Source: a virus (Duplodnaviria > Heunggongvirae > Uroviricota > Caudoviricetes). From it: a DNA stretch of 34,224 bases. The translations under genes were made by a program, and so were the position numbers. This document shows positions 1,551 to 21,026 of this stretch, in pieces. Position 1 is the stretch's first letter, and each line of letters starts with the position of its first letter. The DNA lies in IMG/VR virus record IMGVR_UViG_2563366968_000004, positions 1 through 34,224 of that record. One strand, written 5' to 3'. Under the pieces are notes generated by a model that worked only from the letters and a program-made list of their open reading frames with translations, was not told where the DNA came from and did no database searches.

Positions 1551-1556
1551 GGTCAG

Positions 1557-3887: not shown

Positions 3888-3899
3888 CGGAGACTGAAA

Positions 3900-6117: not shown

Positions 6118-6377
6118 ATATCAACTTAATTTATCGTCATCCGTGTGAGCTGGAAATTGAATCATTGCTGGGGCGCGAAGAGCCATATCCAGACACATTC
6201 ACTCCCGCAGATTGCGCGACTGAACGGCTTACCAGAGCGCGCACAGGTCTGGTTCATGTGATGAATGAGATTGTTCCCTCGGTGGGAGGGGAACAGGCGA
6301 CAGTAATCAATAGCTGGCTACAAAAAGTTACCTCCCTGATAGATATCGGTTTAATCGATGTGGAGAGTGCGAAATGA
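6114..6377 (+). CDS. Hypothetical small protein (87 aa)
   Basis: ATGA overlap coupling with the neighbouring ORFs. Confidence 0.5.
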   Translation: MNINLIYRHPCELEIESLLGREEPYPDTFTPADCATERLTRARTGLVHVMNEIVPSVGGEQATVINSWLQKVTSLIDIGLIDVESAK

Positions 6378-6595
6378 CCAACATCCAGCTCATTGAAGCG
6401 CAATGTCGCATCGAACAGGTTCAGACTGTTTTAGGGTTCTGGCTTGAAGGGGCCAGCCCCAGCAACAGAGACAAGTTAATGATTGGCGCGGTTATGTCAC
6501 TGCTCAATGGCGTACCAGAAGCTATTCAGGAAGCGGACGAATTGTTGGGCAAATATGAGTTACAGAATCATTCAGGCGAGGCGAAACATGAATAA
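6374..6595 (+). CDS. Hypothetical small protein (73 aa)
   Basis: ATGA overlap coupling with the neighbouring ORFs. Confidence 0.5.
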   Translation: MTNIQLIEAQCRIEQVQTVLGFWLEGASPSNRDKLMIGAVMSLLNGVPEAIQEADELLGKYELQNHSGEAKHE

Positions 6596-7190
6596 TTTCT
6601 TAACTTTCCATGCAGAAGCAACGCCTGACGGCGTAAACATCATGTACCGCAGCAACGATGGCATGACAGAACGCGTTGAGGCCGTCTCATATATTGATGC
6701 CGTAAATCGTCTGGATGCCGGGGATTATGACGATAAACCAGATGAAGGCATGTTTATACATCTCGCTATTGCCAGTGGCGGCAACCAGGGATATTTCGAT
6801 TACACATCACAGCATCACGTGATTATGTGGCGCTGGCTGATAGCAACAGCATTCATCAATGAAATGAGAAAGGAAAACGGCACCGTCAGCATTATTGATG
6901 ACAGTGGCAATCATTCCGTGGTTTCTGTTTATTCCAATGGCATCGTCGCCATGCCGCTGTATCCAGTAGCAGAGCGCCTCGCTATGGCAAACAACATTGA
7001 GGGCGCAATGATCGAGAAATATGGTGTTGATGTCGGAACAAAGAATGCCATCATTTTTTACAGCAACATGTTCGATGTCGAACAGGGAACACTCACTTCG
7101 TTTGGGCGAGAAGTGCTTGCCGATCTTCACAACAGCTTTATTGCCGAACTAAACGAAAACGGCATCCCAGAAGCACCAGTGACGCACTAA
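6588..7190 (+). CDS. Hypothetical protein (200 aa, start at internal ATG 6588)
   Basis: ATG at 6588 overlaps the upstream stop by 8 nt; the longer ORF from 6483 begins with an implausible N-terminus. Confidence 0.5.
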   Translation: MNNFLTFHAEATPDGVNIMYRSNDGMTERVEAVSYIDAVNRLDAGDYDDKPDEGMFIHLAIASGGNQGYFDYTSQHHVIMWRWLIATAFINEMRKENGTVSIIDDSGNHSVVSVYSNGIVAMPLYPVAERLAMANNIEGAMIEKYGVDVGTKNAIIFYSNMFDVEQGTLTSFGREVLADLHNSFIAELNENGIPEAPVTH

Positions 7191-7202
7191 ACGGGGGCCA
7201 GA

Positions 7203-9554
7203 ATGCGAAACATTGATCTTATCCGTCAGGTTATCAGTGCGTCTGAAAACAACTGGCCTCATGTGCTGGGCTGCCTGAACATAAATGTCCCTGACTCTCC
7301 GCGCCGTCATGCTCCCTGCCCTGCATGTGGGGGCAAAGATCGATTCCGGTTCGATGACAACGGGCGCGGTAGCTTCATCTGTAATCAGTGCGGCGCTGGT
7401 GATGGGCTGGATTTAATTAAACGCGTAAATAACTGCGACACAACAGAGGCGGCGCTTCTTGCCGCTGATGTTCTGGGTATTGATTACCGGACAACGGAAA
7501 CACCAGAAGCCACCAGCCAGAAACGGGAACAACTGGAAACCGAGCGCCAGCGACGCGAACAGGAGCGCCTGAAAAGGGCAGAGAAGGACGAACAACAAAG
7601 ACGGGATACGTTTTCCCGTCAGTTTGATGACATGCGCAGAAAGGCTGTAAACGGCAAATCTGATTATCTGGTTGCGAAAGGGGTAGGTGATTTTACATTC
7701 CCCGTGTTGCCCGATGGATCTCTGTTGCTGGCGCTGGTGGATAAATCCGGCGCAGTCACAGCAGCACAGACTATTACCCCACATGGTGAAAAAAGACTCC
7801 TGACAGGTTCGGCAAAGCGGGGGGCATATCACGCCATAAACGCACAGAAACGACCTCACAGCATCATAATTGCTGAGGGGGTGGCTACCGCCCTGTCGTG
7901 CCATTTAATTCGCCCTGACGCAATGACAGTGGCAGCAATCGACGCTGGCAACCTGTTGCCAGTAGCGGAAGTCATGCGCAGAACATATCCGCAGGCACAA
8001 ATAATCATTGCCGCAGATAACGATCACCAGCAAGGAGACTCAGAAAGTGGAGGGATCAACACGGGGAAAGATGCCGCAGAGAGGGCCGCTATTTCCGTAG
8101 CTGGCAGGGTGTCTCTGCCACCGACTGACTATAAAGCCGACTGGAACGACTATCACCAACAACACGGGCTGGCGGCAGCCACAGCAGCATTTAAAGATTC
8201 GATGTACCAGCCACGGGGGAAAGGGGCGCAGGTGAAAAATCACAAACAGTCAGTCGGGGCGCTGAATGAGATCAGTTCTGGCGAGGTGTTAAGCGATGAT
8301 GAAATTGCTGTCCTCGAAGAAATCAACCGGACGTTTACGCATGTCACCATCGGCGGGAAACACAAGGTGGTGTCGCTAAAGCCTTCTCAAACCGGCGGTG
8401 TATCGCACGTTTTCGAGGATTTATCACAATTTCAGCATTATTTTCATCATAAACCGAGAGTCGCCAGAAAGCTGGCGGGATCGGCGTGGCTGTCATGGAG
8501 TGGGAAGAACTACAAGCCAGGAGGCGTAGGATTTTATCCAGTACCAGACAAATGCCCTGACGATGTTTTTAATCTGTATGAGGGGCTGGCACTGGAACCA
8601 ATTGAAGGAGATTGCACGGTATACCTTAATCACCTGTTGCAGGTTGTCTGTGCCGGTAATGAAGAGGCATGCCAATATCTTATCCAGTGGATGGCGCACA
8701 TTATCCAAAAGCCTGATGAAAAACCGTCCGTGGCAATCGTGATGAAATCTGTCCCGGGCACAGGGAAAGGCACAACGGTTAAACCGCTGCTGCAAATACT
8801 GGGGCAGTACGCCGCCCACATTAACGGGGCGGGACATATTTCAGGGCGCTTCAATTCAATACTTGCTAACAAGCTACTGGTATTTGCTGACGAAGTGACG
8901 ATCCACAAGCCGTCTGAAGCTGACAGACTTAAAGCGATTATTAGCGAACCGACGTTTAACCTTGAGCGCAAGGGAATTGATGCTGAACCAATGCCGAATT
9001 TTGCCCGGTTGATATTTGCCAGTAACAGCACACAGGTATTACAGGCAGGGATAAGAGAGCGTCGCTATCTCGTGCTTGAGCCATCTCCTGAAAAAGCACA
9101 GAGCCGGGAGTATTTTGATCGGCTGTACAGTTGGCTTAATGATGGCGGTGCCGCAAAGTTGCTTTGGCATCTTAAAGGGGTGGATCTCTCAGGTTTTGAC
9201 CCTCAACGAGCGCCACAGACCGATGCCTTACGTGAAGAAATCTTGCTGGGGCTGTCTGGCGTTGAATTGTTTCTTTATGGCGAGCTAATCAATGAACCTC
9301 CGTTTAATGGCGAAGTCCGTTTGTTTGCAAAGGATATGGTTAGTCGGTTTGTAGCGTGGTCGCTTGAGCGTGGGGAAAAGCTTAAAGAACCAGCTGCCAG
9401 ATCACTACTGGGTAAATCACTTGCACAAATGGGGCTGGTGAAGCATGGAAGACCAGACCGAGGGAATGGCGTGTTCTACGAACTACCAGAGGTCGGAGTT
9501 CTACAGGCTGCGTTTGCCCGTCTGATCGGTATGGGGGGTTATGATGTTTTTTAA
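7203..9554 (+). CDS. Primase/helicase replication protein (zinc ribbon + TOPRIM primase + SF3/D5-like NTPase), 783 aa
   Basis: CPACGG...CNQCG zinc ribbon, TOPRIM-like IIIAEGVATAL...AADND, Walker A VPGTGKGT and Walker B LVFADEV; same domain logic as P4 alpha and PICI pri-rep. Confidence 0.9.
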   Translation: MRNIDLIRQVISASENNWPHVLGCLNINVPDSPRRHAPCPACGGKDRFRFDDNGRGSFICNQCGAGDGLDLIKRVNNCDTTEAALLAADVLGIDYRTTETPEATSQKREQLETERQRREQERLKRAEKDEQQRRDTFSRQFDDMRRKAVNGKSDYLVAKGVGDFTFPVLPDGSLLLALVDKSGAVTAAQTITPHGEKRLLTGSAKRGAYHAINAQKRPHSIIIAEGVATALSCHLIRPDAMTVAAIDAGNLLPVAEVMRRTYPQAQIIIAADNDHQQGDSESGGINTGKDAAERAAISVAGRVSLPPTDYKADWNDYHQQHGLAAATAAFKDSMYQPRGKGAQVKNHKQSVGALNEISSGEVLSDDEIAVLEEINRTFTHVTIGGKHKVVSLKPSQTGGVSHVFEDLSQFQHYFHHKPRVARKLAGSAWLSWSGKNYKPGGVGFYPVPDKCPDDVFNLYEGLALEPIEGDCTVYLNHLLQVVCAGNEEACQYLIQWMAHIIQKPDEKPSVAIVMKSVPGTGKGTTVKPLLQILGQYAAHINGAGHISGRFNSILANKLLVFADEVTIHKPSEADRLKAIISEPTFNLERKGIDAEPMPNFARLIFASNSTQVLQAGIRERRYLVLEPSPEKAQSREYFDRLYSWLNDGGAAKLLWHLKGVDLSGFDPQRAPQTDALREEILLGLSGVELFLYGELINEPPFNGEVRLFAKDMVSRFVAWSLERGEKLKEPAARSLLGKSLAQMGLVKHGRPDRGNGVFYELPEVGVLQAAFARLIGMGGYDVF

Positions 9555-9581
9555 TATAGTCTTTTTACAAGAAGATCGTTT

Positions 9582-9690
9582 TTACCTGTACCACCTATAC
9601 CACTTTGCTAATTCAGTATTAAAAACAATGTGTTATAGTGGTACAGGTCAATATCTTACCTATACCAGACCTGTACCACCTATACCATTA
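9582..9690. repeat. Iteron cluster CCTGTACCACC(TATACCA) (2 direct copies plus an inverted GGTACAGG copy); candidate ori
   Basis: Copies at 9584-9601, 9632-9644 (inverted) and 9671-9688, immediately downstream of the primase gene. Resembles P4 type-I iterons (TGTTCACC). Confidence 0.5.
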
Positions 9691-9730
9691 ACAAACGCAT
9701 TTCTTCTGGCTGGCTGAGAGGGAACAGCCA

Positions 9731-9961
9731 ATGATGAGCACACCATTTTACAAAGTGCGCCAGTTAGCTTCTTCCTCTGGCTGGCAGCTACGGTTTGAGG
9801 GGCGTTCAGACTGGCTACCCATTGCGGCATGGGCGAATGTTGAAATGTGTATTGACGGCGATACCGTTGAAATCATTATTCCCTGCGTGGCAAGTCGGGA
9901 CGGCTGTATAGAGCCAACAGATATGGCAGCAGAAATCAGAGAGGTAAAACATGAACAATAA
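9731..9961 (+). CDS. Hypothetical protein (76 aa)
   Basis: ORF with purine-rich RBS, lying between the two iteron clusters. Confidence 0.5.
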   Translation: MMSTPFYKVRQLASSSGWQLRFEGRSDWLPIAAWANVEMCIDGDTVEIIIPCVASRDGCIEPTDMAAEIREVKHEQ

Positions 9962-10688
9962 CTATTGCATACCGCAGGGAATGACCAGAACGGAGCGCGA
10001 AGAATTAAAAAGTTTCGCTACACAGTGCGGGAATGCTGGCGACATCCAAAGTCTGGAACGCACTTTAATTATGATTGCGCACTGGATGCGTCAGGGGCAA
10101 AGGGTTTCATTTACTGAATATGCCAGCCAGTGGACAGAGGCACAGCGCGAACGGAGCGACGGTAATCACTCAACACCCGAAATGGCGAAGCAATGGCCTT
10201 TCAGTGGTAAACGCTGTATCAGTCCCGGTGGTTCAGATTATTACCCTGCTGGTGTGGGAGATGAGCCATGTTGTGACGAGACTGAAATCCGCCACGCAGT
10301 GACAGTAATTACCGCTGAATACCCACAATTTAACCTTGACGGACTGGCGCTCCACAACCGGAATGCGGACTGGGAAAACCCGCTTGATAACCCGTCATTT
10401 ATCGTATCGGCGAAAAGCTGCCTGAGATGGATCAGAGACAACGGGATGAGTAATGCCCAGATTGAGAGCTTCCCGCAGGATAACCCCACATCTGACACGT
10501 TGAAGCATGAAGTGGAGCGATATAACCAGATAAACCACCAGCACAGTGATCACCCGCACTATATCCCCAACGGAGCATTTATTGCGGCGATGGTGGCAAG
10601 CGGCTACAAGGTTAAGCCAGCGGGAAGAATGAACGCATTTTTCAATATTTCAAAAAAAGGATTATGTGCTGCTATGGGTAAAAATTAA
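9951..10688 (+). CDS. Hypothetical protein (245 aa)
   Basis: ATG overlaps the upstream ORF; no family recognised. Confidence 0.55.
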   Translation: MNNNYCIPQGMTRTEREELKSFATQCGNAGDIQSLERTLIMIAHWMRQGQRVSFTEYASQWTEAQRERSDGNHSTPEMAKQWPFSGKRCISPGGSDYYPAGVGDEPCCDETEIRHAVTVITAEYPQFNLDGLALHNRNADWENPLDNPSFIVSAKSCLRWIRDNGMSNAQIESFPQDNPTSDTLKHEVERYNQINHQHSDHPHYIPNGAFIAAMVASGYKVKPAGRMNAFFNISKKGLCAAMGKN

Positions 10689-10691
10689 ATA

Positions 10692-10800
10692 AATGGTACA
10701 GGTCTGTACAGGTGGGGAGAGGTCATTTTTACCCACCTGTACCACCTGCAGGCCGCGCTACACAAGGGTTTGTGACATGGTGGTACAGGTGGTACAGCAA
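10692..10800. repeat. Second iteron cluster (GGTACAGG / CCTGTACC in both orientations); candidate crr-like cis replication region
   Basis: GGTACAGGTCTGTACAGGTGG, CACCTGTACCACCTGCAGG and GGTGGTACAGGTGGTACAGC read directly; same core as the 9582-9690 cluster. Confidence 0.5.
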
Positions 10801-11162
10801 AAACAGCGATTTTCTTTATAAGGTATGTTTTGCTCATCTGGCAGACGGAGGTATTCGCTGCGGTTTGGCACGTAGCCCAGAACAGCAAAGAGTTTTACGA
10901 GACTTTTGTAAAATCCAGTGTACAAGGGCGTGACGTTTTTGAAGGAGAGACCTACGAAATTTTCGTAGTTCAAAAAATAGCCTCTGAGATGTTGTTATGC
11001 CTGTTCAGCAAACCATCCGCATAGCTGATCGCGAATCAAATTACCAATGGAGCCAGAAGCAAGGGCAGAACTGGAAAGCGCCTGCCGTGAAGAGTAATGC
11101 GACATCATAAATATAGTTTTTAGAGTCCATAAAAAACCTGTCAAAACCTGACATACAGAACG

Positions 11163-11196
11163 ATGCCACCAGCTACTGAGCGGTGGCATTTTTTTG
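11163..11196 (+). terminator. Rho-independent terminator (GCCACC-loop-GGTGGC followed by TTTTTTT)
   Basis: ATGCCACCagctactgagcGGTGGCAT then a T7 run, read directly; insulates the downstream operon. Confidence 0.55.
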
Positions 11197-11290
11197 TGCT
11201 ATTTGTTTCATATTTTGCAATCACAATGATGAATGTTGCGTTTTGTGAAACTATAATGACTGTTGTTTTATACAGTTCTAAGGGGACGTT

Positions 11291-11464
11291 ATGGCTATTT
11301 CAGTAAAGCCAGTATTGATAAGTGAGAAGCAAATGGAAGCGATAAAGAAAATTCAGGAGGAGCAGCGTAAAAAATCAGAGGTAGGAGTTGCGCCAACGAT
11401 CCACGAAATTGCTCGGGGATTAATGGATAAGGCGCTGGCTTACACTTTAACTGGACGTGGGTAA
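11291..11464 (+). CDS. Small protein (57 aa), possibly a ribbon-helix-helix type DNA-binding protein; first gene of the cargo operon
   Basis: AAGGGG RBS 6 nt upstream of the ATG; TATAAT at 11253-11258. Absent from the ORF track (below 60 aa). Stop is 5 nt before the next ATG. Confidence 0.45.
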   Translation: MAISVKPVLISEKQMEAIKKIQEEQRKKSEVGVAPTIHEIARGLMDKALAYTLTGRG

Positions 11465-11468
11465 ATTT

Positions 11469-12935
11469 ATGGCTACTTGGCAACAAGGAATCAACTCAGG
11501 CGGTTTTCTGGCTGGCATCGGTACGCAAAACGAGAATGCGCCAAAGGCAAGCGACATTAACGCAACGCTTGGTCTGATCCGCGAAAACAATGAACTGGCT
11601 CGCTCAGGTGCAAATAACGTTGCTCTGACAGGTCTTCGTGGTCTGGCTGGAGTTGCTGATATTTATAAGCAGCAGCAACAGCAGGAGCGTAAAGCGGCAT
11701 TCCAGAAAGGTTATGCAGATGCTTATGCGTCCGGTGACAGGGAGCAGATGCGTAATCTTATTACAGCATTCCCAGAAGAGTTTGAGGAAGTCCGTAAAGG
11801 GATGAGTTATGTCGATGATGCTCAAAGGGATGATTATGGCAATCTGGCGCTCAAAGCACAGGTAGCCTCATCGCTTGGTCCGGGCGCATTTGGCAGGTTC
11901 ATGATGGATAATGAGCAGGAGATGCGTCGTTTAGGTATCCCTCCAGAAACTATTGCTGAAATGCAGGTTAATGACCCGCAGGGCTTCCAGCATTTCGCAG
12001 GTAATCTGGCGCTGTTTTCTCTCGGTCATGAGAAGTATTTCGATATCAAAGATCAAATGGAAGGTCGGGATATTGAGCGTGGCAAGTTGGCAGAGACAAT
12101 CCGCAGCAATCAGGCTGGCGAAGCACTTCAGGCGAGAGGGCAGGATATTAGCCGAGCAAATGCGTTAACGTCAGCATATGCACCAACAGCAGCAATGCAG
12201 AATTACAATCAGTACGCGCAAATGTTAAAGGCGGATCCAGAGGGGGCGGCGGCATTTGCGGCAGCGGCTGGAATTAATACAAACGCCAAAAAATTAATGA
12301 GTGTTAGAGAAAACGATGATGGCACTGTCACAAAATACTACACAGACGGAAGTGAAGAGCAGGGAAAACTAAACCAGCCAATATCTGGAGATGGGTTTCG
12401 TCCAATAGCTTTGCCAACAGCCCAAAAGATCATGGAAAAGTCGCCAGAAGGGGCTAAAAAAGCTGCTGGATTTGCATACAGGGTTAGGGATGCTCTTGAT
12501 TCAATAGATACACTGAAAGACCAGCTTAGCCCACAGCGAGTGGCGATCATTAATAATGCTTTGGGTAATGGGACGCTGGCTAACTTAACGCTCAGCCCAG
12601 CAGAGCAGCAATACGTTGTTAATGCTAATGACGCAATAATGGCAATACTCCGTCAGGAAACAGGGGCATCTATCCTACCAGCTGAAATGTCCAAATATTA
12701 TCAAATGTATTTCCCTCAGCCTGGTGATTCCACAAAAACCATTGATACCAAGCGCCGGAAGATGGAAAACCAGTTCAATTCGCTGAAAGCTGCTTCTGGT
12801 CGAACTTATGATGCTTTGCGGGTTATTTCAGCAGTTGACAGAGGAACTGCTTCTTCGTCGCAGACATTGCCGCAATCTGAGCAGGTATCACAGCCAGCAG
12901 CCAGCAGTAACTTTTCTTCACTATGGGGTGATTAA
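11469..12935 (+). CDS. Large Ala/Gln-rich hypothetical protein (488 aa from ATG 11469; 492 aa if GTG 11457 is used)
   Basis: Long ORF with good coding character, poly-Q tract (QQQQQ), predicted helical/coiled-coil; no catalytic motif recognised by eye. Confidence 0.7.
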   Translation: MATWQQGINSGGFLAGIGTQNENAPKASDINATLGLIRENNELARSGANNVALTGLRGLAGVADIYKQQQQQERKAAFQKGYADAYASGDREQMRNLITAFPEEFEEVRKGMSYVDDAQRDDYGNLALKAQVASSLGPGAFGRFMMDNEQEMRRLGIPPETIAEMQVNDPQGFQHFAGNLALFSLGHEKYFDIKDQMEGRDIERGKLAETIRSNQAGEALQARGQDISRANALTSAYAPTAAMQNYNQYAQMLKADPEGAAAFAAAAGINTNAKKLMSVRENDDGTVTKYYTDGSEEQGKLNQPISGDGFRPIALPTAQKIMEKSPEGAKKAAGFAYRVRDALDSIDTLKDQLSPQRVAIINNALGNGTLANLTLSPAEQQYVVNANDAIMAILRQETGASILPAEMSKYYQMYFPQPGDSTKTIDTKRRKMENQFNSLKAASGRTYDALRVISAVDRGTASSSQTLPQSEQVSQPAASSNFSSLWGD

Positions 12936-15040
12936 TGGCTAAAGCATGGAAAGATGTTATCGCCTCTCCACAGTATCAGGCGTTAGCACCAGAACAAAAA
13001 GCGCAGGCTCAGGAGCAATACTTCAATGAAGTCGTTGCCCCGAAAGCCGGAGAAAGTGTAGAGCAGGCTAAGCAGGCTTTTTATGCTGCCTATCCACTAC
13101 CATCAACGAATGCAATAGACCGATCCCAATCAGCAACTCAAAATATTCAACATACATCATCTGATAATTCTCTTGCGTCAGGGTATGCAAAGTTAGCTAC
13201 TCAGCAAAGAGAGGGGCTTGAGCGTTCAGCAGAACAGGGAGCCAGTCTTGGGGCTGCGATGCGCGATGCTATAACAGGCGAAAGCCGAATGACTCCAGAG
13301 ATGGAGAGACTGCAAAATGTCGCCTCTGCCCCAGAATTGAACTCACTAAGCATGGATGCCCTAAAGGCTGGATGGTCTCAACTTTTCGGCTCTGACGCGT
13401 CTCAGGAAAAGATTCTTCAGGGAATGGGGGCGACATTAAGGCAGGATGAGAAGGGGAATACTATCGTTTCTCTGCCATCAGGTGATTATGCCCTGAACAA
13501 GCCGGGTTTATCACCGCAAGACCTGACCTCGTTTCTTGCTAATGCGTTGGCGTTTACACCAGCGGGCAGGGCCGGAACGGTGCTGGGGGCCATAGGAAAA
13601 TCAGCAGCTACAGATTTAGCACTACAGGGAGCCACCAGCCTTGCTGGTGGAGAAGATATTGATCCGTTACAAACGGTAATTTCTGCTGGCATTGGTGGTA
13701 TTGGTAAGGGGCTGGAAAATACAGCGAGTGCGGTTTCGAGGGCTGTTCGTGGTGATATGTCGCCTGAAGCAAAGGCTGCTGTCGACTTTGCATCGGAAAG
13801 AAATCTGCCGTTAATGACCAGTGACATGCTGAAAGATAAAACCTTTATGCAGAGTCAGGCTCAGACATTAGGCGAAAGAGTTCCTTTTTTTGGAACCGGT
13901 AAGAATCGGCTGAATCAACAACAAGCACGAGAAAATTTAGTCAGAACATTTAGCGATGGTCTGGGTGGCATTTCTGATAAACAGCTTTATGAATCTGCGA
14001 CTAAAGGGCAACAAAAATTCATTGAGGCAGCAGGAAAGCGATATAACCGCATAATTGACGCTATGGGGGATACCCCTGTCGATCTCTCAAACACGGTAAA
14101 AGCTATCGACAATCAGATTGCCGTGTTAAGCCGCCCGGGCAAATCTCAGGATAGAGCCGCGGTAAAAGTCTTGCAGCAATTTAAAGACGATATCACCAGC
14201 GGACCAAATGACCTGCGTCTGGCGAGGGAAAACAGAACCGATCTTCGAAAGCGATTTATGGCGTCATCTGACACTGTTGATAAAGATACGCTCCAGAAAG
14301 CCAGCGATATTATCTACAAGGCATATACGGCGGATATGAAAAAAGCCGTAGCCAAAAATCTTGGAGCAGACGAAGCCATTAATATGGCAAGGGTTGATCG
14401 CTCATGGTCTAAATTCAATGACATGATGGGAAGAACGCGCGTTCAAAAGGCAATAGCCAGCGGCAAGGCCACGCCTGAGGATGTAACAAAACTCGTTTTT
14501 AGCCAAAGCCCATCAGAACGTTCTCAGCTTTACAGGCTTCTGGATGACAATGGTAGGCAAAACGCACGAGCAGCCATAGTTCAGAATGCTGTAGATAAGG
14601 CGACTGATCCGTCTGGAAATATCAGTGTTGAGAAGTTTATTAATGCGTTACACCGGAACAGGAAGCAATCAGCAACTTTCTTTAAAGGCGTACATGGAAA
14701 GGAACTGGACGGCGTTATTAAATACCTCAACGATACAAGACACGCGGCAAAAGCGAACGTTCAAAACTTAAATGGTCAGCAGCTTTATGGATTGTTAGTT
14801 GGTGGTGGCATCATAAACGCAGCAGTATTAGCGGGGATGCTAAAAACGGCTGCGTTTGTTGTTCCTGCTGCTGGTGCCGTAGGCGGAGCAGCGAAGGCAT
14901 ACGAAAGCCCTGTTATACGAAATGCCTTGTTACGTCTGGCAAATACGCCAAAAGGTAGCACAGCATATGACAGAGCGATCAGTACGGTCACACAATCGCT
15001 CACCAGAGTCGCACAGGCATCACAAAAAGAATCTCAATAA
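12935..15040 (+). CDS. Large Ala/Gln-rich hypothetical protein (701 aa) with C-terminal Gly/Ala-rich hydrophobic hairpin
   Basis: TAATG overlap with the upstream gene. Hydrophobic glycine-zipper segment LYGLLVGGGIINAAVLAGMLKTAAFVVPAAGAVGGAAKA at about 14783-14900; no canonical Walker A. Confidence 0.75.
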   Translation: MAKAWKDVIASPQYQALAPEQKAQAQEQYFNEVVAPKAGESVEQAKQAFYAAYPLPSTNAIDRSQSATQNIQHTSSDNSLASGYAKLATQQREGLERSAEQGASLGAAMRDAITGESRMTPEMERLQNVASAPELNSLSMDALKAGWSQLFGSDASQEKILQGMGATLRQDEKGNTIVSLPSGDYALNKPGLSPQDLTSFLANALAFTPAGRAGTVLGAIGKSAATDLALQGATSLAGGEDIDPLQTVISAGIGGIGKGLENTASAVSRAVRGDMSPEAKAAVDFASERNLPLMTSDMLKDKTFMQSQAQTLGERVPFFGTGKNRLNQQQARENLVRTFSDGLGGISDKQLYESATKGQQKFIEAAGKRYNRIIDAMGDTPVDLSNTVKAIDNQIAVLSRPGKSQDRAAVKVLQQFKDDITSGPNDLRLARENRTDLRKRFMASSDTVDKDTLQKASDIIYKAYTADMKKAVAKNLGADEAINMARVDRSWSKFNDMMGRTRVQKAIASGKATPEDVTKLVFSQSPSERSQLYRLLDDNGRQNARAAIVQNAVDKATDPSGNISVEKFINALHRNRKQSATFFKGVHGKELDGVIKYLNDTRHAAKANVQNLNGQQLYGLLVGGGIINAAVLAGMLKTAAFVVPAAGAVGGAAKAYESPVIRNALLRLANTPKGSTAYDRAISTVTQSLTRVAQASQKESQ

Positions 15041-15058
15041 CTGGTTAGCCATGGATGG

Positions 15059-15478
15059 CTAATTTTTGTTCTTTGCTCTCATCCATAGGTAAAGAAGGGA
15101 AAGAACAAGACAAAAAACAGAGAATAGATAACCTACCTCATATGGTGCGCCAAAAAAATTAGCTATTGATACGGGCAAAAAAGCTGAAGCGATCAAAATT
15201 GAAAGGCAAAAAATAAGCCCAGTAATATAGTTTATTAAATTCTTAAATGAGAAACGTTTTGCTTGATTTACGGTCTTAACGAACGATCGCTTAACGACGG
15301 ATAAAAGCAAATAGATGGCGACAGTTGCTAATGCCCCTTTCCACCAGTCTGGATATAGTTTTGCGACAATCAGACCAAGTAAAACCATGATGACAGCCTG
15401 AGCATTCACACCAACCCTCCCTTTAGCTTTGTTTAGAATGGCAATCATCATATATCCAAGACATGGCATTTGGTACAT
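15059..15478 (-). CDS. Small integral membrane protein (139 aa, about 4 TM helices), convergent to the 701 aa gene
   Basis: Four hydrophobic segments in the translation; stop is 18 bp from the stop of the 701 aa gene. Start codon uncertain (several in-frame Met, no strong SD). Confidence 0.6.
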   Translation of the reverse strand: MYQMPCLGYMMIAILNKAKGRVGVNAQAVIMVLLGLIVAKLYPDWWKGALATVAIYLLLSVVKRSFVKTVNQAKRFSFKNLINYITGLIFCLSILIASAFLPVSIANFFGAPYEVGYLFSVFCLVLSLLYLWMRAKNKN

Positions 15479-15595
15479 AGCTTGGGTCGGGATTTCAAAT
15501 CCGCTCCCAGTTGATGGGGCCGTTACAGTACGCGCATATCCGCTTTATGTGAAACAGGAAGATTTTTCTGATATCACTGCCACAGCAAAACACCA

Positions 15596-15618
15596 ATTTC
15601 GAGACAAGTACGCGCGCG
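15596..15618 (+). repeat. Direct repeat copy A: ATTTCGAGACAAGTACGCGCGCG
   Basis: One of three copies of ATTT(C/T)G-GACAAGTACGCGCGCG (also 15880 and 18178); contains alternating CG. Related degenerate copies at 15525-15543 and 15659-15680. Confidence 0.4.
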
Positions 15619-15879
15619 AGGGGTATCAGTTGCAAAAAATTTTGCAACTACGTCCGACCAGTACGCGCACGATGGAGGGGAGTACCATAAAACTGTTCTC
15701 TACATAAGTCAGAGTAGTGGTGATGTGTTGATTATCGGCGTATATGCGCACAGGACGCGCTATGACGATGTTTTATGCGGGTACACCAATCACATGTATC
15801 TGGTGTGATAAATCGCGTTACATGACCTCTCATGTTGTGCTGGTGGTTATCACGACTTTCTGAATCTGGCCTTTGCCTG

Positions 15880-15908
15880 ATATTTTGCGACAAGTACGCG
15901 CGCGTAGC
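15880..15908 (+). repeat. Direct repeat copy B: ATTTTGCGACAAGTACGCGCGCGTAGCA (contains 12-bp palindrome TACGCGCGCGTA)
   Basis: Read directly; lies about 380 bp upstream of the Abi gene. Confidence 0.4.
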
Positions 15909-16283
15909 ATCGAAATTATCGGATGGCGTATGCTGCTGGCAATATGAAGACCGATAGTATTAACCGAAAAGCGATTAAGGAGTGCCAACTTTTCAGTAGA
16001 GAAACTAGCCAGCATAGGAAAATGTAGAAATTACCCAATTAATAGGTAAAAGTTATTGACACAGCCTGTAGTGGATAACGATATGAATAAAAACCACATA
16101 TAGTGGTTTTTCGTGAGTGATGATAGTACCTATGTTAGTTTCCTAAGTAACTGTGCATTGACATGTGGATAACTTCGGATAGAGTTACACTCAACTGAGC
16201 CCGGCCCCCTGGCTTTATCTTGTCTTAGATGAGAAATTGTTATGGCCGGGCCTTCTTGTATCTGGAGGTAGGAAACCTTTTGT

Positions 16284-17246
16284 ATGGCTGTTCCGGTTAA
16301 GGTTCATAAAGAATATGATGAACTTGTCGATTTATTGCTGTCTCGGGGTATGGATGTGCCAGATCGCGAACATGCTATCAAGAAAATCTCACAAGTAGGC
16401 TACTACCGATTATCAGGCTTTTGGTACCCCTGCCGAATCCCCCATATAACAACAGACAATATTAGAACCAGACTCGATCAGGTTCGTCCAGGTACTAATT
16501 TTCGCGCAGTATATGACCTCTATTTATTCGATAAAAATCTGCGTTTGCAGATGATGAATGCGTTAGAACGCATTGAGGTTTATGTTCGGTCAGTTATTGC
16601 TCATGAGCTTGGTAAGATATCTCCTTTAGCATATCTTGATGACTCGCTAATAAATCCAAAACACTTTAGACCACGTTCCCATGGTCGCCCAAGCGCCAGA
16701 GAAGAATGGATAAATAAACATAATGCCGAGATTGCTAAAAGTCGCGAAGACTTTATCAAATGGCATGAAAACAAGTACGAAGGTCTTCCTTTCTGGGTGG
16801 TTATTGAAGTGTGGGACTTCGGCTTAATGTCAAAGTATTATGCGATGCTAAAAGACAGCTATCGCAACAGGATACTATCTAGGCTAGGGATAGCGGCAGG
16901 CAATGGAGCTATCTTCCAAAACTGGCTTAGCGCAATGAATGTGCTAAGGAATCGGTGCGCTCACCATTCACGCATCTGGAACAAGGTCAACGAACCAAGA
17001 TTAATGCCTTTGCCAAATGAGCCGTACTTTGAACAATTAAATATGAATGATGATGCGTACGAAAGAATGTACGGAATGATCGCTGTGTTATGGTTTTTAG
17101 TGAAAAAAATTGGACCGGGATCTGACTGGATAAAAAAAGTTGCCAACCTTGTAGATAACAAGCCTAACTTACCAGGATGTAACCTGACAGCCATGGGATT
17201 ACCTGATAATAACGGTTTCCCAAGGCATTTATTTGATATTGAATAA
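16284..17246 (+). CDS. Abortive infection protein, Abi_2 family (AbiD/AbiF-like), 320 aa
   Basis: N-terminal region (LLSRGMDV..., QVGYYRLSGFWYP, VYDLYLFDKNLRLQMMNALERIEVYVRSVIAHE) matches the Abi_2 family pattern. AT-rich gene with a roughly 800 bp AT-rich leader. Confidence 0.8.
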   Translation: MAVPVKVHKEYDELVDLLLSRGMDVPDREHAIKKISQVGYYRLSGFWYPCRIPHITTDNIRTRLDQVRPGTNFRAVYDLYLFDKNLRLQMMNALERIEVYVRSVIAHELGKISPLAYLDDSLINPKHFRPRSHGRPSAREEWINKHNAEIAKSREDFIKWHENKYEGLPFWVVIEVWDFGLMSKYYAMLKDSYRNRILSRLGIAAGNGAIFQNWLSAMNVLRNRCAHHSRIWNKVNEPRLMPLPNEPYFEQLNMNDDAYERMYGMIAVLWFLVKKIGPGSDWIKKVANLVDNKPNLPGCNLTAMGLPDNNGFPRHLFDIE

Positions 17247-17247
17247 A

Positions 17248-17703
17248 TTATAGCGATGGCGCTGAATGTAGCGCCACTGATAACTTTTCAGCATTGCTTC
17301 CCTGACGCTTCCACGCGCTGTAAATATCTTTATCCCATGCCTTACCAGCTTTTGTTTGATAGCCTGCTTCATTGATCCGTTCAGCTATCACGCGCCCATT
17401 ATCAAATCCCTGTCGGATGGTATCGGCAATGATCTTTATAACTGCCGTTTCGTTATATGGCTTTGGTGGGATGTTCGGCTTTCCGGCAATAAGCGACGCA
17501 GCGGCTTTTTCCATGCGCTCCACCAGCCCAAGCATTCGTGAATCAATAGACTTTTCCGGCTGTCCCAGCTTCATGCGAATCGCATCAACAAGCCAGGAGG
17601 TTTTATCCCCTCCAGAAGCGAGAACAGACCGATTAAACTCATCCTGCAATTCAGATGGGATGCGGAACGCGACCAGATTAGATTTGCTCATTGCAAAGAC
17701 CAT
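17248..17703 (-). CDS. Putative DNA-binding protein with N-terminal ribbon-helix-helix-like motif (151 aa)
   Basis: N-terminus NLVAFRIPSELQDEFNRSVLASGGDKTSWLVDAIRMKL resembles the CopG/Arc RHH fold; stop is 1 bp from the Abi stop (convergent). Confidence 0.55.
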   Translation of the reverse strand: MVFAMSKSNLVAFRIPSELQDEFNRSVLASGGDKTSWLVDAIRMKLGQPEKSIDSRMLGLVERMEKAAASLIAGKPNIPPKPYNETAVIKIIADTIRQGFDNGRVIAERINEAGYQTKAGKAWDKDIYSAWKRQGSNAEKLSVALHSAPSL

Positions 17704-17715
17704 ATCAGTGAGTAA

Positions 17716-17750
17716 TATCCATACAGTATACCACTGTATAACACTGTTAT
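17716..17750. promoter_or_regulatory. Operator-like palindromes in the divergent promoter region (TACAGT-N5-ACTGTA and GTATAACA-C-TGTTATAC)
   Basis: Perfect inverted repeats read directly between the divergently oriented RHH-like and PerC-like genes. Confidence 0.3.
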
Positions 17751-17855
17751 ACGCTCAAATATCAGCCAGAAAATAACGGACCAATCACAAAGCTATCGCT
17801 GTGTTGTTGGTTCAGAGCTGGGCTGTGTTGGTTCAAAATAATCTGAGAGGCAGAA

Positions 17856-18137
17856 ATGATAAGGGACAGGAAAGCTGAAGAGCTGGAGTCAAAAGGGCTA
17901 TACCGGAGAGCTGCCGCACGATGGATGGAAGTCATGCTGTTATGCACCGAGGACGATGATCGGGAATGGATAAAGCGCCGCCGTGAAACGTGTCTGGAGA
18001 ACGTGAAGCGCCCGCCCGTGAAGGTTGAGGACTTTGGCGACCTGCATAAAGCTGTTACCGAAACGCAACACCGCATGGGGATAGCGCAACCGAACGGTAA
18101 CGCCTTCCGGTTAAATGGCGGCAAGAGGCAAAGGTAG
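17856..18137 (+). CDS. PerC-family transcriptional regulator (93 aa)
   Basis: Signature ELESKGLYRRAAARWMEVML is characteristic of the PerC family. Confidence 0.7.
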   Translation: MIRDRKAEELESKGLYRRAAARWMEVMLLCTEDDDREWIKRRRETCLENVKRPPVKVEDFGDLHKAVTETQHRMGIAQPNGNAFRLNGGKRQR

Positions 18138-18177
18138 ACCACCAGAGGGAAATCATCCTCTGGCTGGCGGTTTCTGG

Positions 18178-18208
18178 TATTTCGGGACAAGTACGCGCGC
18201 GCGTAGCA
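18178..18208 (+). repeat. Direct repeat copy C: ATTTCGGGACAAGTACGCGCGCGCGTAGCA (14-bp palindrome TACGCGCGCGCGTA)
   Basis: Same motif as 15596 and 15880; copies B and C bracket the Abi/RHH/PerC module. Confidence 0.4.
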
Positions 18209-18434
18209 CCCAATCGGTGAGGAAATAGCGGCGACCTGAATGGTCAAAATCACAACGCAGCTATCCCCGTAAGCAGCGCTTAACGGAATAGCAGTAACCT
18301 GAATCCAGTGGGGAGGGGGTAGTCAAATCTCTACAGCCCTGACTATCCGGGACTGCCCGCCCCATCGTTTTTTTATACCCGCGAAAAATGAAATTTAATC
18401 CGGGCGTGTTTCATCCTTCCAGAGGGTATGACGT

Positions 18435-18620
18435 ATGACACCACGCGAAATAGCCTTATTGACCATCGCCAAACTTGAGCACGGAGGCCACCAGCTTACA
18501 CAGGCAGATCAACGGGAGATAGAACGATCAGTTAATGCCGATATAGCCCGGCGCGACAGGTTCCGCGAAATGATGCGAGCACCTGCCTACCAGTGGAAGA
18601 AGCCAGCGCCGCGCAGGTAG
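18435..18620 (+). CDS. Hypothetical small basic protein (61 aa)
   Basis: ORF with GAGGG RBS; no family recognised. Confidence 0.35.
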   Translation: MTPREIALLTIAKLEHGGHQLTQADQREIERSVNADIARRDRFREMMRAPAYQWKKPAPRR

Positions 18621-18740
18621 ATATGGGATTATTCCACATGTAACTTATGCGTATTAAGCAAATTTCCTTTATTCACCTTTACAGAATTGTGAGTACGTCA
18701 GTATCGTTATCCTTCCGATTCGCATTTATTCAGGATTTGC

Positions 18741-19283
18741 ATGTACCAGCTAAAGATAACCATCCGAGACAGCAAACCACCTATATGGCGGCGTGTGCTG
18801 GTTCCAGAGCAAATCCCCTTTAGTAAACTTCATGCCGTGATCCAGTTAGCTTTTGGCTGGAATGACGAACACCTGTATATGTTCGAGAAAGGGCGTAAAG
18901 GTGATCCAGGTAGCGAGTATCGCGTATGGGGTGAGGATGAAAGCATGGGTAACGCGGCAATCACGCCACTATGGGCGGCGCTCCAGAATGAGGGTGACAA
19001 GCTGGTTTACACGTATGACTTTGGCGACTGGTGGGATTGCGTCATTGTGCTGGAGAAGCAAACACACGATACGAGTAATCAGCCCATTAGCTGCCTGCGT
19101 GGGAAAGGCACCACCCCGGCGGAAAACTCAGGCGGCTTGCATGGTTACAATGAATTGCTATTACAGGCCAGAGAGTCTGATAATCCTGAGCAGGCCGAGA
19201 TCCACAATTTCCTGATGCTGGATATTGAACGCCGGGTTTACGACCTGAGCCGCATCAACGACAGATTGCAGGCTATTTACTGA
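18741..19283 (+). CDS. Plasmid pRiA4b ORF-3-like family protein (180 aa)
   Basis: N-terminal LKITIRDSKPPIWRRVLVP...FGWNDEHLYMF and the YDFGDWWD motif resemble the pRiA4b ORF-3 family; assignment from memory. Confidence 0.6.
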   Translation: MYQLKITIRDSKPPIWRRVLVPEQIPFSKLHAVIQLAFGWNDEHLYMFEKGRKGDPGSEYRVWGEDESMGNAAITPLWAALQNEGDKLVYTYDFGDWWDCVIVLEKQTHDTSNQPISCLRGKGTTPAENSGGLHGYNELLLQARESDNPEQAEIHNFLMLDIERRVYDLSRINDRLQAIY

Positions 19284-19635
19284 CCCGCATGTATTCACCT
19301 GATATTGCGTTGTCAGCGCCGCCAGTATCGCGCATAACAGCGCACTGACCGGGTAAACCGTAGCGCACGACCGTTGCGTTAGTATCACCGCCGCGCCGTA
19401 TCTGGCGCGATTCATACACTGTCACCCGCTCAAGCAGTCCACCAGCAACCATGCTTTCCAGTGTGCGCCGGGTTGATTCGAGCTGGTGACGCTTATCGAA
19501 CGACACCATGCCATGAAGCAGGTAGGCCACACCCGACACATCGAACGGCGGCGCACCAATCTCACCAGTCACCCATTCGAGGTTATCCGGTTCAAAGTAG
19601 CTAAGTATCTCTTTTTTGCGACTGGTCATTCTCAT
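19273..19635 (-). CDS. Hypothetical protein (120 aa), convergent and overlapping the pRiA4b-ORF3-like gene by 11 nt
   Basis: Clean ORF; no family recognised. Confidence 0.45.
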   Translation of the reverse strand: MRMTSRKKEILSYFEPDNLEWVTGEIGAPPFDVSGVAYLLHGMVSFDKRHQLESTRRTLESMVAGGLLERVTVYESRQIRRGGDTNATVVRYGLPGQCAVMRDTGGADNAISGEYMRVSK

Positions 19636-19753
19636 GGCTGGCTGATTCCTTATTGTGGGATAGCACTATCATACAATAAGTGGGTTAAAGGGAGAGCGTT
19701 ACCGCCTGATATGCTGTATGAATAACAACCAAATTTCAGGGGCGGAAAAAGAT

Positions 19754-19777
19754 ATGGGGGTACTTTTGGGGGTATCT
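19754..19777 (+). repeat. Second copy of the ATGGGGGTACTT(A/T)TGGGGGTAT motif at the satellite/prophage junction
   Basis: 21 of 22 positions identical to 1557-1578; lies in the AT-rich gap between the last satellite gene and the lambdoid integrase. Confidence 0.4.
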
Positions 19778-19862
19778 ATAAAAAATGAACAATAAAAAAG
19801 GCAACAAAAACAAAGATTATCGCCTATGTGTATTGTTCCTATTATCCATTTAAATCAATAAG

Positions 19863-21026
19863 TTACACATCATTAGTACCTTCCTTATTTTTTGACTGGG
19901 ACAAATTTGGGACCGATGGGTTCAGGATCGAGTCTATTTGCCGTGCGTGTTCGGTAAGGTGATTAGGTGCAAGGTGAGCATATCGACGAACCATTTCGAT
20001 AGACTCCCAGCCTCCCATTTCCTGTAACACTGACAACGGGACTCCGGCTTGAACCAGCCAGCTTGCCCAGGTGTGTCTCAAGTCGTGAAATCTGAAATCA
20101 TCAATACCAGCCCGTCTCAGCGCCGCTTTCCAGGCTGTGTTTGCGTCATACCGCATCTTCCTGACCGTTGGCGCTTTCGTTCCGTCTGGTTTGGTACAGC
20201 TTTCCTTGTACACAAATACCCAACGGTGATGATTCCCGATTTGTTTTTTCAATACGCGACATGCAGTATCATTCAGCGCAACGCCAATTGCGCGGTTTGA
20301 TTTACTCTCTTCCGGGTTTATCCATGCCACCCGGCGCTGCATGTCTATTTGTTGCCATTCAAGGTTGATGATGTTCGAGCGTCTTAAGCCTGTTGCCAGT
20401 GCAAATTCAACAACAGACTTTAATGGCTCCGGACATTCATCAATCAGCCTTTGTGCTTCATGGGGCTCCAGCCAGCGGATCCGTTTATTCTTTGGTTGAG
20501 GCACTTTAATAATTGGTGCCTTATCCAGCATTTTCCATTCACGCTCTGCGGCTCTTAGTAGGGCCTTTATAAATGAAAGATGCGTAGCCTTTGTTGCAAC
20601 GGACGCTGGTTTTGGCATGTATTCTGGAACAGGTTTCCCTTTTTTTCTGCATGCTTCTGCCCTGAGTTTCCAGTTTTCCTCATGACGCCGGTTCGTCATT
20701 TTCTGCATTGCTGAATAAATTTTTGATTCAGTAATGTCTCTTAGTTGCATTCCTGCGAAATGTTGAAGCCAGAATCCGATCCGGCTTTTGTCATCGTCCA
20801 GTGATTTTTTATGTGCTTTCTCTTCGAGCCACCTGATACACGCCTCCTCGAACGTCATATCAGGTATTTCACCAAGTTTGCTGACCCGCCATGCTTCAGC
20901 CTTTAGCTTGTCATGGAGCTCTGTCGCCTGCCTTTTGTCCTTTGTTCCAAGAGACTGTTTAAATCTTTTACCGTTCGGCAATGTGAAACTGGCGTACCAT
21001 ATTTCACCTCTGCGGAAGAGTGACAT
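19863..21026 (-). CDS. intR: Lambdoid prophage tyrosine integrase (Rac IntR-like), 387 aa
   Basis: Translation recognised as closely related to Rac-type IntR ([46 protein letters not shown]..., ...[18 protein letters not shown]...RYAHLAP). Confidence 0.9.

Follow-up and report, generated by a model that had tools for sequence, protein, structure and literature searches.

Homologues of the P22 ejection proteins gp20 and gp16 in a cassette of an EcCIMP1-like phage-inducible chromosomal island

The window analysed here is the whole 34,224-nt stretch of DNA deposited as IMG/VR record IMGVR_UViG_2563366968_000004, and feature coordinates, in the text and in Table 1, are positions in it unless a comparison locus (L number) is named. 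It carries a phage-inducible chromosomal island (PICI) resembling EcCIMP1, in which a compact module of four open reading frames (ORFs) is found: three co-directional genes on the plus strand, encoding proteins of 57, 488 and 701 amino acids (aa), and a gene on the minus strand encoding a membrane protein of 139 aa. The TAA stop of the 57 aa leader ORF is followed after 4 nt by the ATG of the 488 aa gene, whose stop in turn overlaps the start of the 701 aa gene in the sequence TAATG (12933–12937), and the convergent 139 aa gene has its stop 18 bp past that of the 701 aa gene. A GTG at 11457 is also possible as a start for the 488 aa gene, but its homologues begin with MATWQQG at the ATG at 11469. 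An original prediction, made from the letters of the sequence, had described the four ORFs, their translational coupling, the 18-bp convergent spacing and an upstream terminator, and all of these are present; the terminator is a hairpin followed by seven T residues that is conserved in other islands and identical in island L002. The large proteins are also Ala/Gln-rich, as had been stated (Ala 13.7–14.1%, Gln 7–7.8%). A further hairpin, of nine pairs and a T-run, lies between the convergent genes and is a candidate bidirectional terminator. Where the present analysis departs from the original prediction is in the identity of the large proteins, which it had called unrecognised and had regarded as part of an undescribed anti-phage or toxin/immunity system.

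Both large proteins are in fact identified at once by standard profile libraries (PF16928, phrog_917 and phrog_770), and a profile search gives clear matches to the gp20 and gp16 families of phage P22. The 488 aa protein matches PF16928 (Inj_translocase, 'DNA/protein translocase of phage P22 injectosome') over aa 12–228 with an E-value of 6.6e-85 and 284.7 bits, against a curated cut-off of 29.7 bits, and its aa 1–488 match positions 1–504 of the 509 in phrog_917 (5.7e-144). PGAP/RefSeq names it 'phage DNA ejection protein'. It is 88% identical to gp20 of the P22-like prophages L022 and L023 and only ~51% identical to gp20 of the L015-type phage, and its N-terminal 234 aa are 58% identical to gp20 of prophage HS1, the C-terminal half being unrelated to the HS1 protein. 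Moreover, the gene lies directly 5′ of, and coupled to, a gene 16 homologue, which is the order found in P22, N7 and HS1. The 488 aa protein is thus clearly a homologue of P22 gp20, with a role by homology that would be that of the periplasmic tunnel component; of the P22 proteins, gp7 belongs to the outer membrane, gp20 forms the tunnel across the periplasm and gp16 belongs to the inner membrane (PMC8954989).

The 701 aa protein is, just as clearly from its alignments, a full-length homologue of P22 gp16, and by homology it would serve as the inner-membrane component. Its aa 19–699 match positions 3–666 of the 668 in phrog_770 ('DNA transfer protein'; 4.1e-163), and its PGAP/RefSeq name is 'P22-gp16 family phage DNA ejection protein'. 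Identity is 71% to gp16 of a Yersinia P22-like prophage, 66–67% to ORF13 of Escherichia phage N7 and 30% (global) to P22 gp16, and an alignment over the whole length is also obtained with the gp16 proteins of Sf6, ST64T, phage L and Proteus phages, at 32–39%. By tblastn, 90% of N7 gp16 was covered at 67.5% identity and 100% of gp16 of Sf6, ST64T and phage L at 32–33%. Homologues in L006 and L007 that are 71–77% identical to it carry a precomputed match to PF26808 (Phage_P22_gp16). The Pfam library used here was without PF26808, PF26849 (SieA) and probably PF25688 (P22_gp7), so that Pfam negatives for these families carry no weight; P22 gp16 itself scores no match with it. In many genomes PGAP marks the gp16-type gene as a pseudogene ('partial, missing C-terminus', ~605 codons), as in L001 (15773–17588) and L002 (16860–18675). 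The flag looks like an annotation artefact: the ORF is intact at 701 aa, and its alignment reaches the very end of the phage gp16 homologues.

The C-terminal part of this protein had attracted attention as a Gly/Ala-rich hydrophobic hairpin reminiscent of pore-forming or glycine-zipper domains. Such a segment does exist (aa 617–649, nt ~14783–14881) and is the sole strongly hydrophobic stretch of the protein, but it is a conserved element of gp16, and the pore-forming interpretation is not supported. The window protein has the C-terminal block of gp16, made up of TGQ, the Gly/Ala segment and YES..RN.LLRLANT..G..AY.RA, and the position of the segment between the TGQ and YES..RN.LLRLANT motifs is kept in gp16 of P22, N7, Yersinia and Edwardsiella. 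Elements that span the membrane are conserved among gp16 proteins, which are membrane-active (PMC8954989). In P22, escape from SieA exclusion involved the gp16 changes G532W and P546S, together with gp20 changes at residues 338–350 (PMC10883804). G532 of P22 is the G of TGQ and P546 lies within the segment, and the two residues map to G614 and K637 of the window protein. By this mapping, the segment likened to a glycine zipper is the element of gp16 implicated in SieA sensitivity.

The convergent 139 aa gene, too, has a position known from P22-like phages. In P22, genes 14-7-20-16 are followed 22 bp later by a convergent sieA, and N7 and HS1 are arranged alike. Hydropathy gives the 139 aa protein about four hydrophobic helices, in keeping with the four transmembrane (TM) segments originally predicted, and so does a low-confidence AlphaFold2 model (pLDDT 56). 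Its family counts ~32 relatives, all from Enterobacterales and all 'hypothetical', and tblastn found no match to it in 50,697 phage records. Homologues with 72–99% identity sit convergent to gene 16, in the sieA slot, in the P22-like prophages L007, L015 and L022. For example, the order in Yersinia L007 is portal, scaffold, coat, gp4, gp10, gp7, gp20, gp16, 139 aa homologue and tailspike, and that in IMG/VR locus L022 is gp26-gp14-gp7-gp20-gp16, 139 aa homologue, two ORFs, Arc/Mnt-like, Ant, tailspike and integrase. Homology to SieA itself was considered and rejected, both for type A (BLASTP E-value 0.99 against P22 SieA; hhalign of family profiles, probability 0.6%) and for type B (BLASTP E-value 31 against HS1 SieA), the positive control of type A against type B giving 9e-23. 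The cytoplasmic SieA motif FxRYPxEAxxFNK (PMC10883804) is absent from both the 139 aa sequence and its family alignment. Since the slot next to gp16 is shared with sieA but homology is lacking, the 139 aa protein is regarded as a positional analogue of sieA. In P22, SieA acts against the gp16/gp20 conduit of an incoming phage (PMC10883804), and so the layout of a large effector with a small membrane protein, pointed out in the original prediction, does have a counterpart in P22, albeit not through membership in the SieA family.

At its 5′ end the cassette is preceded by a leader that is 93% identical to those of L002 and EcCIMP1 (L009), the flanks being different. The 57 aa product had no tblastn match in the 50,697 phage records and no Foldseek, PDB, Pfam, PHROG or NCBIfam match. 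Its AlphaFold2 model (pLDDT 77.6) has an extended N-terminus and helices at 12–28 and 37–53; a ribbon-helix-helix fold was considered and is unproven, Foldseek and PDB sequence searches having returned nothing. Past about nt 11440 the ORF diverges from the L002 version, and its last ~8 codons are, on this comparison, a creation of the junction with phage-derived DNA. Late control of the leader by a helper was another idea that was dropped: similarity to P22 P_R′/qut/t_R′ or to the late region of the neighbouring prophage was not beyond that of shuffled controls, and the leader scan found no strong sigma-70 promoter. A 22-nt repeat, AGTTTTyrGAGTCCATAAAAAA, occurs at 5221–5242 (inside the Ash gene), 10958–10979 and 11115–11136 (the last two just 5′ of the hairpin in the leader). 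These copies are candidate sites for binding by a regulator of the island, for example AlpA.

Table 1. Features of the ejection-protein cassette and of the island that carries it
Feature	Coordinates	Strand	Basis or remark
tRNA-Thr(CGU) thrW, attL side	1369–1444	+	ARAGORN; proA upstream; same locus as EcCIMP1
Tyrosine integrase, P4-type domain set	1610–2824	+	Arm-DNA-bind_3, Phage_int_M, Phage_integrase
AlpA-type helix-turn-helix (HTH) protein	3253–3456		Protein accession identical to EcCIMP1 alpA
Primase/helicase (Zn-ribbon, Toprim, DUF5906)	7203–9554	+	Pfam
Ejection-cassette leader: two 22-nt repeat copies, hairpin, promoter region, most of small ORF	10889–11439	+	Island-specific
Terminator-like hairpin with T-run	11163–11196	+	ATGCCACC...GGTGGCAT plus T7; scan match 11172–11187
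Leader ORF, 57 aa	11291–11464	+	ORF list; PGAP WP_001018522.1
Replaceable ejection-cassette slot (slot 1)	11440–15484	.	EcCIMP1 homology stops at 11439, resumes at 15484
gp20-type ejection protein, 488 aa, mosaic allele	11469–12935	+	PF16928, phrog_917, PGAP
gp16-type ejection protein, 701 aa, intact	12935–15040	+	phrog_770, homologue alignments
Gly/Ala-rich hydrophobic segment of gp16, aa 614–649	14774–14881	+	gp16 C-terminal alignment
Hairpin between convergent genes, 9 pairs then T-run	15043–15064	.	Scan match
Small polytopic membrane protein, 139 aa (129 aa from PGAP start 15448)	15059–15478	-	~4 TM segments
Right flank of cassette	15484–15969	.	96.5% identical to EcCIMP1; 99% to L015 as part of 12873–15969
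AbiD/Abi_2 gene in slot 2 (~15969–17838)	16284–17246	+	PF07751 3.6e-52; PADLOC AbiD 2.7e-57
attR: degenerate copy of thrW 3′ end (TCCTATTATC)	19838–19850	.	Homology to island-only genome L001 ends at 19866

Judged by its gene content and ends, the element that carries the cassette is an EcCIMP1-like PICI at thrW, spanning ~1430–19850 of the window (~18.4 kb). Its genes run integrase, AlpA-type HTH, AntA, DUF4222, Ash, small ORFs, primase, module, AbiD, 151 aa ORF, PerC and pRiA4b-ORF3. The island is 99.96% identical to one in NZ_CM192140, and its identity to EcCIMP1 is 95.9% over window 1–7188 and 99.75% from PerC to attR. Integrase, AlpA and primase in canonical order, att repeats and a size within about 10–20 kb are the marks of a PICI, and the island has all of them; PICIs are also expected to be without phage structural or lysis genes, and here the island departs from the rule by holding two virion ejection-protein genes, as does EcCIMP1, where such genes went unrecognised as structural. 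Homology to virion proteins, coupled with the presence of the remaining virion genes elsewhere in the element, had been named beforehand as speaking against a new defence system. The homology is evident, but a search across the window found no other P22-type virion genes, and the island has none for coat, portal, terminase, tail, tailspike or lysis. The only P4-like traits found in it are the P4-type integrase, Ash and the alpha-like primase; psu, sid and Ogr/Delta were not found when every island ORF of 100 aa or more was scanned against Pfam. A 22-nt sequence, ATGGGGGTACTT[A/T]TGGGGGTAT, is present once near each island end (1557–1578 and 19754–19775), att-proximal, and the two copies are probably integrase arm-type sites.

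Comparison between islands delimits the cassette precisely. Slot 1 begins at ~11440, the 3′ end of the leader ORF, and ends at 15484, which is 6 nt past the ATG of the membrane gene. The window version consists of gp20, gp16 and the membrane gene, without gp14 and gp7. In L002, an island located at yicC-dinD with another integrase and a DUF927 primase, the same slot holds gp14 (phrog_651), gp7 (phrog_598), gp20, gp16 and the membrane gene, and the EcCIMP1 version has gp14 and gp7, a gp20 of 439 aa, a gp16 of 906 aa that includes an SLT domain, and an ORF of 232 aa. Other islands have gp14+gp7+gp20+gp16, with the membrane gene present or absent. The cassette keeps its place downstream of the primase even where integrase and primase differ between islands, and it does so in Edwardsiella too, where the E. 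tarda island L006 runs primase, SSB, gp20, gp16, membrane gene and then further genes including a small-terminase-like gene and Abi_2. To the right, the flank at 15484–15969 is a probable recombination anchor, beyond which a second slot contains AbiD in the window, alpA_1 in EcCIMP1 and an M78 peptidase pair in the metagenomic locus L008. From this comparison of slots, the membrane gene travels with the ejection genes and not with Abi, and the module is a core slot rather than defence cargo. The original description of the module as satellite cargo beside an Abi gene was therefore right about the satellite and about Abi, and wrong about cargo, the Abi gene lying in a separate variable slot.

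Several observations on the relatives belong here. The gp16-type protein of EcCIMP1 (906 aa; L009 14481–17201) has an N-terminal SLT lytic transglycosylase domain, gp20 of EcCIMP1 is less than 30% identical to any sequenced phage gp20, and the DNA match between EcCIMP1 and its helper Kapi1 is confined to ~590 bp in the gp14 region at 81% identity. In the Edwardsiella island, the 166 aa product of L006 7008–7508 matches a small terminase in its N-terminal part (Terminase_2, 1e-09), which suggests that some members of the island family redirect packaging; no counterpart was found in the window.

The cassette is widely distributed in E. coli. The leader core (11100–11440) was found in 499 of 5426 complete genomes, in up to three copies per genome. 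The reduced junction, in which the leader abuts gp20 and both gp14 and gp7 are missing, occurs in 217 genomes and with both primase backbones, and 314 genomes contain 80% or more of the complete module. NZ_CP148430.1 (L010), a 12,152-bp circular sequence that was submitted as a plasmid of E. coli, is an island of the EcCIMP1-like type; assembly may here have captured a satellite that had excised or was replicating. It has AlpA, AntA, Ash, a DUF927 primase, the same 57 aa leader protein, PerC and an integrase, and its cassette, membrane gene and Abi slot are deleted (corresponding to window 11885–17292), with 420 nt of gene 20 left.

The same genes are at home in P22-like phages, from which those of the island originate. 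When IMG/VR was scanned with the 701 aa protein, 79 loci came back, which by marker proteins comprised 58 P22-like prophages, 9 islands and 12 loci that were too short to classify. In the P22-like contig L015, the portal, scaffold, gp4 and gp10 are 96–99% identical to those of HS1 and gp14, gp7 and gp20 are its own, and window 12873–15969 (gp16, membrane gene and right flank) is 99.0% identical to it at the nucleotide level. In L022 to L024, the 5′ part of gp20 and gp16 are shared with the window at 93–96%. Between the window and L002, gp16 and the membrane gene have a synonymous divergence (dS) of 0.01, and the leader, gp20 and Abi are far more diverged. The 99% and mosaic identities demonstrate that the block is in active, recent recombinational exchange among islands and between islands and P22-like phages. 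The ratio of non-synonymous to synonymous divergence (dN/dS) is 0.15–0.30, and no copy examined contains a stop codon; these ratios were given reduced weight because recent phage-island exchange confounds them. With an HS1-type virion module and a 99% identical gp16 in a single contig (L015), HS1-type P22-like phages are the likely helpers of the island.

With somewhat better than even confidence, the region is read here as the ejection-protein (E-protein) cassette of an EcCIMP1-like PICI, whose gp20 and gp16 would be supplied to helper-built particles and whose membrane gene would be of an exclusion type. Supply of ejection proteins and exclusion by the 139 aa gene are the most likely roles for these genes. 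Upon induction of a P22-like helper and activation of the island, island-encoded gp20 and gp16 would be made and loaded into procapsids built by the helper, and in the next infection they would build a conduit across the envelope for entry of the satellite DNA. The 139 aa protein, for its part, would be expressed from the resident island, much as sieA is from a prophage, and would most likely act at the inner membrane against incoming P22-type ejectosomes as a functional analogue, not a homologue, of SieA; an exclusion-type function is the simplest suggestion given the gene's own orientation and its place in the sieA slot. Experiments with P22 have shown that whole foreign E-protein sets work in its virions and that gp7 alone can be swapped, and that particles with gp16 or gp20 swapped singly are non-infectious despite incorporation of the foreign protein (PMC10883804). 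In the light of these results, a cassette pared down to gp20+gp16, relying on gp7 and gp14 of the helper, would fit the supply model. The superinfection immunity that EcCIMP1 brings, with no known defence system behind it, also speaks for this reading.

A number of points weigh against this interpretation. That island E-proteins enter virions, or are needed for transfer, is something we infer from sequence, and a cassette without gp7, the outer-membrane pore component, and without gp14 could not make a conduit by itself. Recent import, and not selection inside islands, could account for the intact ORFs and low dN/dS, the search for a promoter or a regulatory link between cassette and helper found none, and the episomal island L010 has lost nearly the whole of it. 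The prophage adjoining the island is probably lambda-type and not P22-type. As for the membrane protein, it lacks both homology to SieA types A and B and the SieA motif, and EcCIMP1 shows an immunity phenotype yet has no annotated 139 aa gene. Finally, EcCIMP1 was transduced at only ~5e3 per ml, its authors guessed at a packaging role for the cassette genes, and a Kapi1-like prophage was present in only 2 of 21 EcCIMP1 strains (PMC11773190).

The adjoining prophage deserves a brief description. A lambdoid prophage stands in tandem at the island attR (19863–34224), with a 387 aa integrase, yfdT/S/R/Q-like genes, an S24 repressor (24530–25222), a CII-like gene, replication genes, Dam, KilA-N and a porin (31685–32767), its own virion genes lying outside the window. 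The junction between island and prophage is not present in any complete E. coli genome of the collection. The prophage was considered as helper and is unsupported as such; in the sequence most closely related to its early region, the head genes are lambda-type.

A more ambitious version of the proposal, possible but to be held tentatively, is that satellites of P22-like phages carry swappable ejectosome cassettes that decide whose DNA crosses the envelope, and that the 139 aa protein represents a new, non-homologous family of injection-blocking proteins. Island gp20 and gp16 in helper capsids would then let the satellite enter cells, especially helper lysogens, that exclude the helper's own E-proteins. 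The C-terminal regions of gp20 and gp16 set SieA sensitivity (PMC10883804), and under such a scheme the 139 aa protein could act on the hydrophobic gp16 segment encoded beside it. If true, this would be the first satellite that supplies ejection proteins, and it could account for the superinfection immunity conferred by EcCIMP1-like islands.

It is also conceivable, if unlikely, that the cassette works as DNA rather than through its products, the excised island recombining, by way of several kilobases nearly identical to the late region of the helper, into replicating helper concatemers to be packaged by the headful mechanism, or that it is the leftover of such recombination. Homology-facilitated transduction is known for plasmids carrying phage DNA, and the 99% identity of 12873–15969 to a P22-like contig, the 93–96% identity of other segments to P22-like prophages, the strongly mosaic alleles of the islands and the right flank common to phage and islands are all in keeping with such a process. 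A reduced cassette would serve it equally well, and EcCIMP1, without terminase or pac function, nevertheless shows specific low-frequency transduction. Against this, the DNA that EcCIMP1 has in common with Kapi1, its proven helper, amounts in this region to only ~590 bp at 81%. Long intact ORFs would not be required either, yet every examined copy is intact, and the island-specific leader, ribosome-binding sites and coupled starts have the look of an expression unit.

Interference with the helper is a further thought, and quite an unlikely one: island gp20 and gp16 might spoil the infectivity of helper progeny by co-assembly with a non-matching set, or, if made in the resident cell, might jam incoming conduits, which would make an anti-phage device of the cassette. 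P22 virions with a single foreign gp16 or gp20 are indeed non-infectious (PMC10883804), gp20 of EcCIMP1 falls below 30% identity to any phage gp20, the module adjoins an Abi gene, and EcCIMP1 adds immunity against Kapi1 without a recognisable defence system. Kapi1 titres after induction are not lowered by EcCIMP1, however, no PADLOC model matches, and the gp16 of the window, at 99% identity to a phage's own gp16, should be compatible with, and not poisonous to, that type of phage.

The original prediction had named a remnant of phage ejection genes as its alternative, which was correct as to identity and origin and probably mistaken as to 'remnant', the genes being intact, set in a defined PICI slot and in part 99% identical to a phage contig. 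That the cassette is an inert leftover of a decayed P22-like prophage, with no present function, is very unlikely. Phage virion genes with no other P22-type virion gene in the window, the missing gp14 and gp7, the PGAP 'partial' label on gp16 in many genomes and the near-complete loss of the cassette in one episomal relative would all suit decay, but the ORFs extend over the full length of phage profiles and homologues, which does not bear out the PGAP label, and the sharp boundaries are identical in hundreds of genomes, with a conserved backbone, at several att sites and in other genera. Moreover, the relative EcCIMP1 is a functional PICI.

Lastly, the idea that the 701 aa protein is a new pore-forming toxin and the small membrane protein its immunity partner, or that the module is some other undescribed defence system, is scarcely credible: a large protein with a hydrophobic Gly/Ala segment ahead of a convergent 4-TM gene, a satellite context beside Abi and the membrane activity of gp16 proteins (PMC8954989) do recall such pairs, but the homology to virion ejection proteins is full length, the same trio is found inside complete P22-like prophages between gp7 and tailspike, the segment is kept in all gp16 proteins, and no colicin, pore-forming, bacteriocin, immunity, lysis or defence profile in Pfam, NCBIfam or PADLOC matched any of the four proteins.

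Some features around the cassette can be added. A 28-nt repeat, CTGrTATTTyGsGACAAGTACGCGCGCG, is present in three copies, two of them 5′ of AbiD in the shared right flank (15591–15618 and 15877–15904) and the third ~35 bp 3′ of the PerC gene (18174–18201), and the repeats may mark recombination or regulatory sites of the variable slot. Abutting the Abi stop on the minus strand, 17248–17703 encodes a 151 aa protein whose N-terminus looks like a ribbon-helix-helix (weak phrog_30270 match, aa 5–49); because the gene is kept in Abi-less islands such as L010, it is taken to be a backbone gene and not a partner of Abi. Between the DUF5906 primase and the leader, two overlapping ORFs (9731–9961 and 9951–10688; 76 and 245 aa), with only a weak phrog_9576 match, are specific to the DUF5906-primase backbone and absent from DUF927-primase islands.

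What makes the cassette intriguing is that ~9% of complete E. coli genomes harbour a PICI family in which podophage ejection genes are retained intact, in the slot where other satellites hold genes for capsid remodelling or the redirection of packaging; satellites are not known to contribute ejection proteins. The gene families (named in RefSeq), the P22 layout and the island family were already known; the cassette of the window is a variant of these, reduced, with different alleles and with an orphan gene in the sieA slot. The handles gained are the exact cassette boundaries, a common gp20+gp16 form, an HS1-like type of helper and an orphan sieA-slot protein as a candidate exclusion protein. 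A literature search for satellites with ejection proteins led to EcCIMP1 only, and the MP1 transcriptome paper gives no gene-level data on the cassette.

EcCIMP1 is among the known systems closest to the window island, and the one for which helper-dependent excision, replication and packaging are shown by experiment. It is a functional PICI of E. coli MP1 with the P22-like phage Kapi1 as helper (Pick, Stadel and Raivio, ISME J 2025, PMC11773190); it excises only upon Kapi1 induction, is transduced by Kapi1 at low frequency, leaves Kapi1 titres after induction unreduced and adds superinfection immunity against Kapi1 without a recognisable defence system (PMC11773190). The two islands share the thrW (proA-yagU) site, a conserved leader 5′ of P22-type ejection genes and downstream of the primase, and 96–99.8% nucleotide identity over integrase, AlpA, AntA, DUF4222, Ash and small ORFs, and again over PerC, pRiA4b-ORF3 and attR. 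Unlike the window island, EcCIMP1 has a DUF927 primase and a full cassette, whose alleles are 22–24% identical to those of the window at the aa level and are followed by a 232 aa co-directional ORF, and it is without an annotated 139 aa homologue and without Abi. In the original paper the cassette genes figured only as 'DNA transfer-like' or DUF2824 packaging candidates (PMC11773190); they are reinterpreted here as the P22 14-7-20-16 set.

With the 14-7-20-16-sieA block of P22 (ejection operon and start of immI) and that of HS1, the window module has in common the gene order, the tight coupling, a convergent inner-membrane gene ~20 bp past gene 16, the N-terminal Inj_translocase domain of gp20, and the C-terminal motif block and hydrophobic segment of gp16. 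It differs in residing in a satellite without coat, portal, terminase, tail or tailspike genes, in being without genes 14 and 7, in standing under an island-specific leader and in having a membrane gene that is not a SieA homologue. The 139 aa protein resembles SieA (Leavitt et al., mBio 2024, PMC10883804) in its position and orientation relative to gene 16, in being a small polytopic membrane protein, and in that the gp16 segment that mutates in escape from SieA is encoded adjacent to it; it differs in having neither sequence nor profile similarity to type A or type B and no FxRYPxEAxxFNK. Finally, P4-like satellites and the PICIs of Gram-negative bacteria (EcCICFT073 type) share with the window island the P4-type integrase, AlpA, Ash, a P4 alpha-like primase, PerC, integration at a tRNA gene, a size of ~18 kb and a variable defence slot. 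Whereas those elements are known by psu, sid, delta, Rpp/Ppi, small terminase or capsid genes, the window island has none of these, and its slot for exploiting a helper is instead occupied by podophage ejection genes.

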